DNA of 64,000 nucleotides from Eledone cirrhosa. Lineage: Eukaryota. Location of the stretch: the NCBI GenBank assembly GCA_964016885.1, contig OZ024746.1, positions 85,002,001 to 85,066,000 of the forward strand. The letters are read 5' to 3'. This document shows, in pieces, positions 45,000 to 45,575 of this stretch. Positions within the stretch are counted from its first letter, which is position 1; each line of letters starts with the position of its first letter. The notes below the pieces were generated by a model. That model ran no database searches and had not been told where the DNA came from. It saw only the letters and a list, made by a program, of their open reading frames with translations. The position numbers and the translations under genes were made by a program.

Positions 45000-45575
45000 A
45001 TAAATTATTAAAAAAATAATGAATAAACAAAGAAACAGTTCCTTATATTAAACAAAAAAAGTTCATTATTTTACGATCGTTTCTAGGACATATATGTGTT
45101 AGAATTGGTATGCATATTCAAAAGATCTATGTACAAAATTATACAAACTATCAAAGAGAATATACATACCTTCACATATATATGCTATCTTCAGAAATAA
45201 TTATTTCTGAAGACAGCATATATATGTGAAGGTATGTGAATTATTTCTGAAGACAGCATATATATGTGAAGGTATGTATATTCTCTTTGATAGTTTGTAT
45301 AATTTTGTACATAGATCTTTTGAATATGCATACCAATTCTAACACATATATGTCCTAGAAACGATCGTAAAATAATGAACTTTTTTTGTTTAATATAAGG
45401 AACTGTTTCTTTGTTTATTCATTATTTTTTTAATAATTTATCTTGACTCTGTATTCCGTTTATCTTTCACCGAAAGTGATTTTTGAATGCATCTCTTCTT
45501 TTCATGATATCCGGATTACATTGAGTTCTTCATACGGATTGGACACTACCGTAAACTTTTGGTAGATTTATCTAC
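45000..45575 (+). mobile_element. Fold-back + tail element, family F
   Basis: ~200-bp near-perfect inverted arms (45000-45200 / 45241-45441), a 40-bp duplication at the centre, and a ~135-bp tail. (TA)n lies on both sides. Confidence 0.9.
45240..45376 (+). ncRNA. Type I hammerhead ribozyme with ~104-nt stem II region
   Basis: attattt-CTGAAGA (45247-53)-[104 nt, base gcatatatatgtg / cacatatatgt]-GAAA (45358-61)-cgatcg-TA|aaataat. Perfect 7-bp stem I and palindromic ACGATCGT. Confidence 0.7.

Follow-up and report, generated by a model that had tools for sequence, protein, structure and literature searches.

Introduction

Penelope-like elements (PLEs) are retroelements whose insertions are described as 5'-truncated partial tandems, in many cases accompanied by an inverted copy and by a tail at one end, in microsatellite targets (PMC8557442, PMC3846280). 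Several PLE clades target (TA)n, the Hydra clade among them, and the rows given for the Hydra clade mostly carry an extra base on each side of stem II of the hammerhead ribozyme and mostly place the hammerhead about 100–200 nt from the 3' end (PMC8557442). According to a biochemical study, a purified PLE protein cuts and extends both DNA strands and prefers AT-rich DNA, reverse transcription begins at two start sites, which define the tail, and the hammerhead requires protein and is dispensable for insertion in vitro (PMC11167929). Metazoan PLE hammerheads occur as pairs on opposite strands, 100–700 bp apart, and the PLE descriptor given in the same source allows a stem of 3–7 bp and a loop of 3–10 nt, with at most about 26 nt between the two half-cores (PMC4209133); a helix II called "long" in PMC13725137 measures 6–8 bp.

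Here, we analyzed a palindromic unit in a 64,000-nt stretch of genomic DNA from Eledone cirrhosa (hereafter, the window). With a probability of roughly 0.8, the unit derives from the 3' end of a Penelope-like retroelement, heavily 5'-truncated on insertion, and the parent probably belongs to a Hydra-like clade that targets (TA)n; the unit carries a hammerhead motif with a predicted 104-nt stem II that is family-wide.

Results

Anatomy of the palindromic unit

The whole palindromic unit spans 45000–45575 and is set in (TA)n (Table 1). Its two arms, 203 nt each, match at 202 of 203 bases, the sole mismatch being 45187 versus 45254, which agrees with the nearly identical arms of about 200 bp reported in a preliminary description of this DNA. 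The fold-back centre had been placed right at the 5' strand of stem I, and the left arm indeed joins the first forward copy within that strand, with a 2-nt overlap at 45200–45201. The 40-bp duplication containing CTGAAGA, noted at the same place, is also borne out by the assembly (45199–45238 versus 45239–45278, 39 of 40 positions identical, period 40). Two short slips could account for how the 40-nt copy ends, since a 5-nt word occurs twice, 11 nt apart, in the arm and the restart has 2 nt in common with the junction; a jump of RT or of a repair polymerase would fit this, as would slippage at a later time. The exact centre and the duplication are known from the assembly alone; among the 32 pieces listed from 2387 contig records of public sequencing runs (one of the 32 listed records being two pieces), none bridges the centre with at least 31 letters on each side.

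Table 1. Features of the palindromic unit and its flanks (positions in the window)
Feature	Position	Strand	Remarks
Left (TA)n run	44985–45002	none	Likely insertion target; overlapped by the outer end of the left arm
Left arm	45000–45202	-	Tailless copy, inverted and 5'-truncated
Left-arm type I hammerhead motif	45065–45201	-	Base of stem II is a U-A pair, with the U on this arm in place of C
40-nt aborted forward copy (partial tandem)	45199–45238	+	Comprises the 5' strand of stem I, CUGAAGA and the initial 25 nt of stem II
Right arm	45239–45441	+	
Stem I, 5' strand	45240–45246	+	Partner 45370–45376
First half-core, CUGAAGA	45247–45253	+	
104-nt stem II	45254–45357	+	C.A mismatch at the base, two helices, variable distal hairpin
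GAAA half-core and self-complementary 8-nt stem III (45361–45368)	45358–45369	+	Predicted cleavage after 45369
Stem I, 3' strand	45370–45376	+	
One-sided tail, 134 nt	45442–45575	+	Family sequence, without long ORF
(AT)52 run	45576–45679	none	Likely right half of the target

The terminal 336 nt of the family are present at the locus and the ORF is absent; no long ORF was found in the arm end or the tail. BLAST of the element against the window revealed no second copy of the unit outside microsatellites. No RT or endonuclease gene was found in the window, an absence expected for a truncated copy. The window is AT-rich and full of microsatellites, and SINE-like dispersed repeat copies lie around the unit (43723–43879, 44277–44471, 46205–46247, and 47253–47487). 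The (TA)n on both sides of the unit is a preference listed for the Hydra clade but common to other clades, and the family-derived tail on one side measures 134 nt versus the 30–40 nt published for PLEs.

We then compared the layout of the unit with that of other palindromes in the window. Nine of the 13 palindromes tested have one arm 0–3 nt from (TA)n and the other arm 72–134 nt away, and for the remaining four a (TA)n run is present on just one side. Of the three centres in a short-stem hammerhead family of the window, two lie 5–8 nt before CTGANGA and the third 123 nt before it. This layout, with folding back close to stem I, is thus a recurrent pattern in the window. The unit had also been called very young, which is plausible given a single difference in 203 nt versus two to seven differences in 48–67 nt for eight short palindromes of the window, a comparison that leaves out the ungapped counts for 45000–45441 and 4702–5061 (these run into centres or indels); conversion between the arms could, however, mimic youth.

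A hammerhead motif well above the chance level

On the right arm, CTGAAGA (45247–45253) and GAAACGATCGTA (45358–45369) are separated by 104 nt and closed by a perfect 7-bp Watson-Crick stem I, as first described; a mirror motif lies on the left arm, and both motifs read away from the centre. The order in each arm is the 7-bp stem I, CUGAAGA, 104 nt, GAAA, the self-complementary 8-nt stem III and a GUA cleavage triplet. All type I core elements (CUGANGA, GAAA, A15.1-U16.1, and NUH) are present. H17 is A at the locus and U in 65% of the depth of X1, one of the public runs introduced below. The predicted cut site lies 206 nt from the 3' end, and the truncated copy is without loop I. Both arms lack the canonical G10.1-C11.1 pair (C.A on the right, U-A on the left). 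A mismatched stem II base is known in other hammerheads (PMC3088659, PMC7229834), exceptions to G10.1-C11.1 are also tabulated in the supplement of PMC8557442, and one Chara PLE in that supplement has the identical C and A at the base of stem II.

The window was searched with a type I descriptor (spacer of at most 300 nt, stem I of at least 5 bp), with 60 block-wise dinucleotide shuffles, microsatellites removed, as the control. The descriptor matched 11 times in the window, three of these matches coming from this unit, versus a mean of 0.017 per shuffle; therefore, the motif is not a chance occurrence. None of the 60 shuffles gave a match with a stem I of at least 7 bp. Rfam yielded no match in the window at the gathering score, and its 22 matches down to E 10 included no hammerhead; the miRNA-precursor matches were dismissed, as they fall below the gathering score and reflect the hairpin alone. 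Rfam also misses the short-stem hammerheads at 13466–13553, so its failure is not specific to the long stem. In contrast, the published PLE descriptor cannot reach the motif because 104 nt exceeds its limit of about 26 nt. The proposal that a long-stem-II hammerhead would escape standard models thus stands for the motif, with its hairpin spacer, and for the descriptor, but the Rfam result does not speak for it.

Predicted folding of the long stem II

The 104-nt spacer alone is predicted to fold at -32.6 kcal/mol (z -5.79, with 0 of 1000 shuffles as good), and its antisense is weaker (-25.3). The predicted proximal helix pairs 45255–45268 with 45343–45356, with one C.C mismatch and in register with the core, and a 13-bp helix pairs 45271–45283 with 45322–45334 at a probability of about 1.0, whereas the tip is variable. 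Across the motif, stem II is predicted to be strong, stem I weak, and stem III unstable as a monomer. The hammerhead fold of the right arm lies 2.9 kcal/mol above the predicted minimum, with pair probabilities of about 0.05 for stem I and about 0.01 for stem III, and that of the left arm lies 1.4 kcal/mol above the minimum, with a stem I pair probability of about 0.3. As a dimer, stem III would form an 8-bp duplex of -12.0 kcal/mol. The entire palindrome is predicted to fold as a long duplex (-308 kcal/mol), so read-through RNA of the locus would form a duplex of roughly 200 bp in which both ribozymes are buried. By these models, the copy at the locus is probably inert as a ribozyme and, if active at all, would be a source of dsRNA. 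We conclude that the unit carries a hammerhead motif with a stem II that, by prediction, forms a hairpin of 104 nt, beyond usual search patterns.

Family copies in public sequencing runs

Four public runs of 23 listed (X1, X4, X5, and X7) were compared with 45130–45572. X4 bears the organism label of X1 but is another sample, and X5 and X7 bear two further organism labels; X1 is possibly the source of the assembly and hence not independent, and no run is recorded as RNA. Contigs matched in all four runs (2068 in X1, 281 in X4, 31 in X5, and 7 in X7), and the tail is covered in each, in X7 only up to about 45523. The summed contig depth rises to about 966,000 in X1, which is not a copy number, and loose contig ends near 45550 continue into TA repeats. 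One X7 contig (depth 2.2) spans 45240–45366 without a gap and with two differences, including both half-cores and the long spacer, and X5 contigs cover 45240–45333 with six differences and 45338–45441 with two. No short-stem form of the family was seen, and none of the three joints listed across the four runs shortens the spacer. The 104 nt is a family trait and not a private insertion at the locus, and the "insertion" into stem II of the preliminary description finds no support as an event.

Two variants of the centre were found in X1, a 3-nt insertion at 45195 (five contigs) and a 2-nt insertion at 45199 (three contigs), which hint at other fold-backs within stem I. No recurrent family end at 45441 was seen in the loose ends listed (127 more lie beyond these). 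A fall in depth upstream of 45250 was not counted as evidence of truncation; it is uninformative because the window is without native upstream sequence there. A loose end before 45243 in three X4 contigs possibly represents this native upstream sequence, with AATAAA about 11 nt before the stem I remnant, and in these contigs stem I may be longer. Metagenome contigs scanned for the unit with two exact patterns gave 0 loci for each.

We mapped 14 X1-supported variant rows (45269–45380) from the 40 rows listed (four more exist), setting aside the left-arm mirror rows, the X4-only rows and the rows further downstream. The preliminary description had asked whether homologs conserve the core while the insert varies. 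The direction agrees, with a variable tip and none of 12 variant sites at the 12 core positions, but this is a weak test (p = 0.32). Five variants lie in helices, where pairing is kept in four and broken in one (4% of depth), and one of the four turns a wobble into a Watson-Crick pair in 87% of the depth. The variant pattern fits selection without proving it. No phased compensatory pair was seen among the family variants. An unphased hint of compensation comes from 45374 A-to-G (23%) together with an X4 loose end that has C at the partner position 45242, and a second one comes from a subfamily, visible in loose ends, in which the 13-bp helix is reshaped and the bulge is absent.

X4 also differs from X1 at five positions (A-to-G at 45336, 45348, 45350, and 45417; T-to-C at 45423), where the change amounts to 9–28% in X4 and less than 0.1% in X1. 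All five X4-specific changes fit the ADAR type (p about 0.002 if such changes were as frequent as in X1), whereas the overall ADAR-type share is not clearly higher in X4 (15 of 34 places) than in X1 (9 of 30). Stem II does not include two of the five sites, a location that would suggest duplexes of the whole palindrome. The changes resemble A-to-I editing and serve as a lead only, X4 being another sample of which the kind, RNA or DNA, is not recorded.

Other hammerhead and palindromic elements in the window

Hammerhead families with stem II spacers of 31, 36, and 47 nt that fold as hairpins are found at 44779–44838 (minus strand), 14205–14275 (minus strand), and 62148–62225 and 62670–62747 (plus strand), respectively; the latter two form a direct repeat with a distance of 522 nt, resembling a pair of terminal repeats that flank a non-coding insert. 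A match with a 104-nt spacer at 20136–20284 (plus strand) is doubtful and was set aside, as its stem I is weak and its fold contains no long helix for stem II; it is possibly a chance or decayed motif. The short-stem hammerhead family (4702–5061, 13443–13576, and 55989–56122) forms head-to-head palindromes with one-sided tails of 66–76 nt beside (TA)n. Another family has six palindromic copies (7920–8051, 11399–11498, 12281–12395, 13035–13165, 41424–41538, and 61920–62043) that contain GAAAC, a GUC triplet and a long hairpin resembling stem III, but not CUGANGA; all six fold back about 10–25 nt before GAAAC, with differing centres and tails of 75–124 nt. At 5334–5635 lies a 302-nt palindrome with an A-rich centre, a one-sided tail of 102 nt, GAAAC and a palindromic GC stem, in which the first half-core was not found.

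Discussion

Judged from its sequence, the unit is likely a member of the Penelope-like elements, and the palindrome is explained by the context of PLE insertion, which the preliminary description had not identified. The GIY-YIG endonuclease of the parent element would have nicked a (TA)n run on both strands, and RT would have had two start sites, about 45575 and 45441, both of them downstream of the hammerhead, leaving one arm with a tail and the other without. Both cDNAs would then have stopped in the 5' strand of stem I and been joined head to head through the 2-nt A/T microhomology, and a single slip and restart in the forward copy would have produced the 40-nt repeat. The RT template jump that the preliminary description read from this repeat is consistent with the microhomologies at the junctions and with the partial tandems of PLEs, but replication slippage or an assembly error could have left the same trace. 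In the tandem transcript of the parent element, hammerheads dimerized by way of the palindromic stem III would show weak cleavage after 45369, and the long stem II would fold aside.

A PLE origin is also compatible with another source of the mirror arm, namely a snap-back, in which a cDNA ending at stem I primes itself on a short A/T palindrome and stops before the tail. The near identity of the arms, which have all minor family alleles in common, speaks for this variant, as does self-priming proposed for inverted PLE junctions in PMC3846280; we regard it as a possible but less probable course, because a snap-back alone does not explain why tails stay on one side (66–90 nt in two other families of the window), whereas two RT starts do. 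That the palindrome, or just the 40-nt duplication, arose at a hairpin during long-read sequencing or assembly is improbable. Fold-back chimeras are a recognised long-read artefact, and no listed contig crosses the centre by 31 letters on each side, but the arms differ at one real position, the flanks are unlike, a tail and junction microhomologies are present, and other variants of the centre occur in contigs of the public runs.

An intron reading has similarly little probability; in it, 87 nt of the 104-nt spacer would be a spliceosomal intron (strong donor at 45272, branch-like CTAAC at 45339–45343, acceptor at 45358), and splicing would leave a short hammerhead. AG|GTRWGT is expected by chance in about 1.5% of 104-nt stretches, a figure obtained post hoc, and terminal repeats of PLEs often bear introns (PMC4209133, PMC8557442). 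Yet none of the three joints listed in the four runs skips the spacer (no run being recorded as RNA), the joined form would be nearly without stem II (-0.4 kcal/mol), the donor sits inside the 13-bp helix, and loose ends in both X4 and X5 reveal a subfamily that lacks the branch-like motif. Improbable as well is a non-autonomous DNA element, a MITE or foldback element with long TIRs and a TA target that inherited a dead hammerhead. Such an element would account for the long, near-perfect inverted repeat in a TA context, but the repeats here are not terminal, as the family sequence continues for 134 nt beyond the right arm; moreover, the centres differ between copies (the 3-nt and 2-nt insertions), and the layout is common to several unrelated hammerhead families in the window. 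We therefore retain a truncated PLE insertion as the reading of the locus.

If the reading holds, the core of a hammerhead motif can persist in a very abundant animal retroelement despite a stem II of 104 nt, and therefore genomic surveys with short-stem descriptors likely undercount hammerheads; some PLEs scored as hammerhead-less merit re-inspection. Minimal palindromic insertions of this kind are compact records of the integration step of PLEs, and many copies of one family could separate the two-start-site model from the snap-back model. If X4 is RNA, such palindromes would supply a pool of dsRNA edited by ADAR. A broader proposal is speculative and rather unlikely: PLE hammerheads would form a graded series of long stems II (31, 36, 47, and 104 nt in the window) missed by descriptors, the 104-nt rod would act as a control element, an ADAR- or protein-binding helix in which editing or binding sets the folding of the ribozyme, and 3'-end processing at AATAAA upstream of stem I may create an RNA 5' end at which RT stops. 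Such processing, if true, would account for the position of the fold-back at stem I.

Several described systems share parts of this design. The discontinuous Clec2 hammerheads are likewise hidden from standard searches by a large insertion, but the search in their case permitted insertions in loop 1 or loop 3 and concerned the 3' UTRs of mammalian mRNAs, whereas the long segment here is stem II of a mobile element (PMC2950038). The non-LTR retrozymes are also non-coding, PLE-related and equipped with a type I hammerhead, but they form head-to-tail tandems in which each unit has a complete hammerhead, unlike the head-to-head pair with a tail found here (PMC7229834; bioRxiv 10.64898/2026.07.22.740005). 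The minimal metazoan PLE hammerheads have the same palindromic stem III, a larger stem II, opposite-strand pairs and an expected weak or dimer-dependent cleavage; their consensus has G10.1-C11.1 and a helix II of 7–8 bp, both unlike this motif (PMC4209133).

Hydra-clade PLE hammerheads share the (TA)n preference, the type I motif near the 3' end, the extra base flanking stem II and the near-palindromic short stem III, but their spacers reach at most about 26 nt versus 104 nt here (PMC8557442, Files S1 and S2). The motif of Hydra-1_Obim differs from that of the unit. Identity with the published octopus Naiad and Hydra elements was rejected, as neither three probes nor inspection by eye gave a motif match; the three probes had 0 matches in the supplement of PMC8557442, a text in which line breaks and incompleteness may hide some. 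In that supplement, PLE-X1_sMoe and PLE-X1_sTam from spike mosses are also PLE hammerheads in which stem/loop II is enlarged, and they are flagged there as non-canonical; their spacers of about 54 and 48 nt by our own count are about half of 104 nt, and these elements are from plants and endonuclease-less. The former is the longest PLE spacer that we found in the accessible print record, and no report of a stem II of about 100 nt in an animal PLE was found in the literature searched, a search that lay outside Repbase, Dfam and some supplements.

The EN+ Penelope-like elements have the same head-to-head inverted, 5'-truncated copy and microsatellite target, and their partial tandem and one-end tail are possible counterparts of the 40-nt repeat and the tail found here (PMC8557442, Fig. 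2 legend; PMC3846280), whereas the locus described here holds only the terminal 336 nt, without an ORF and with a tail of 134 nt instead of 30–40 nt. Compared with these systems, the palindrome, its centre and the duplication are ordinary for PLEs, and the novelty, which is modest, is the 104-nt stem II in a very high-copy family.
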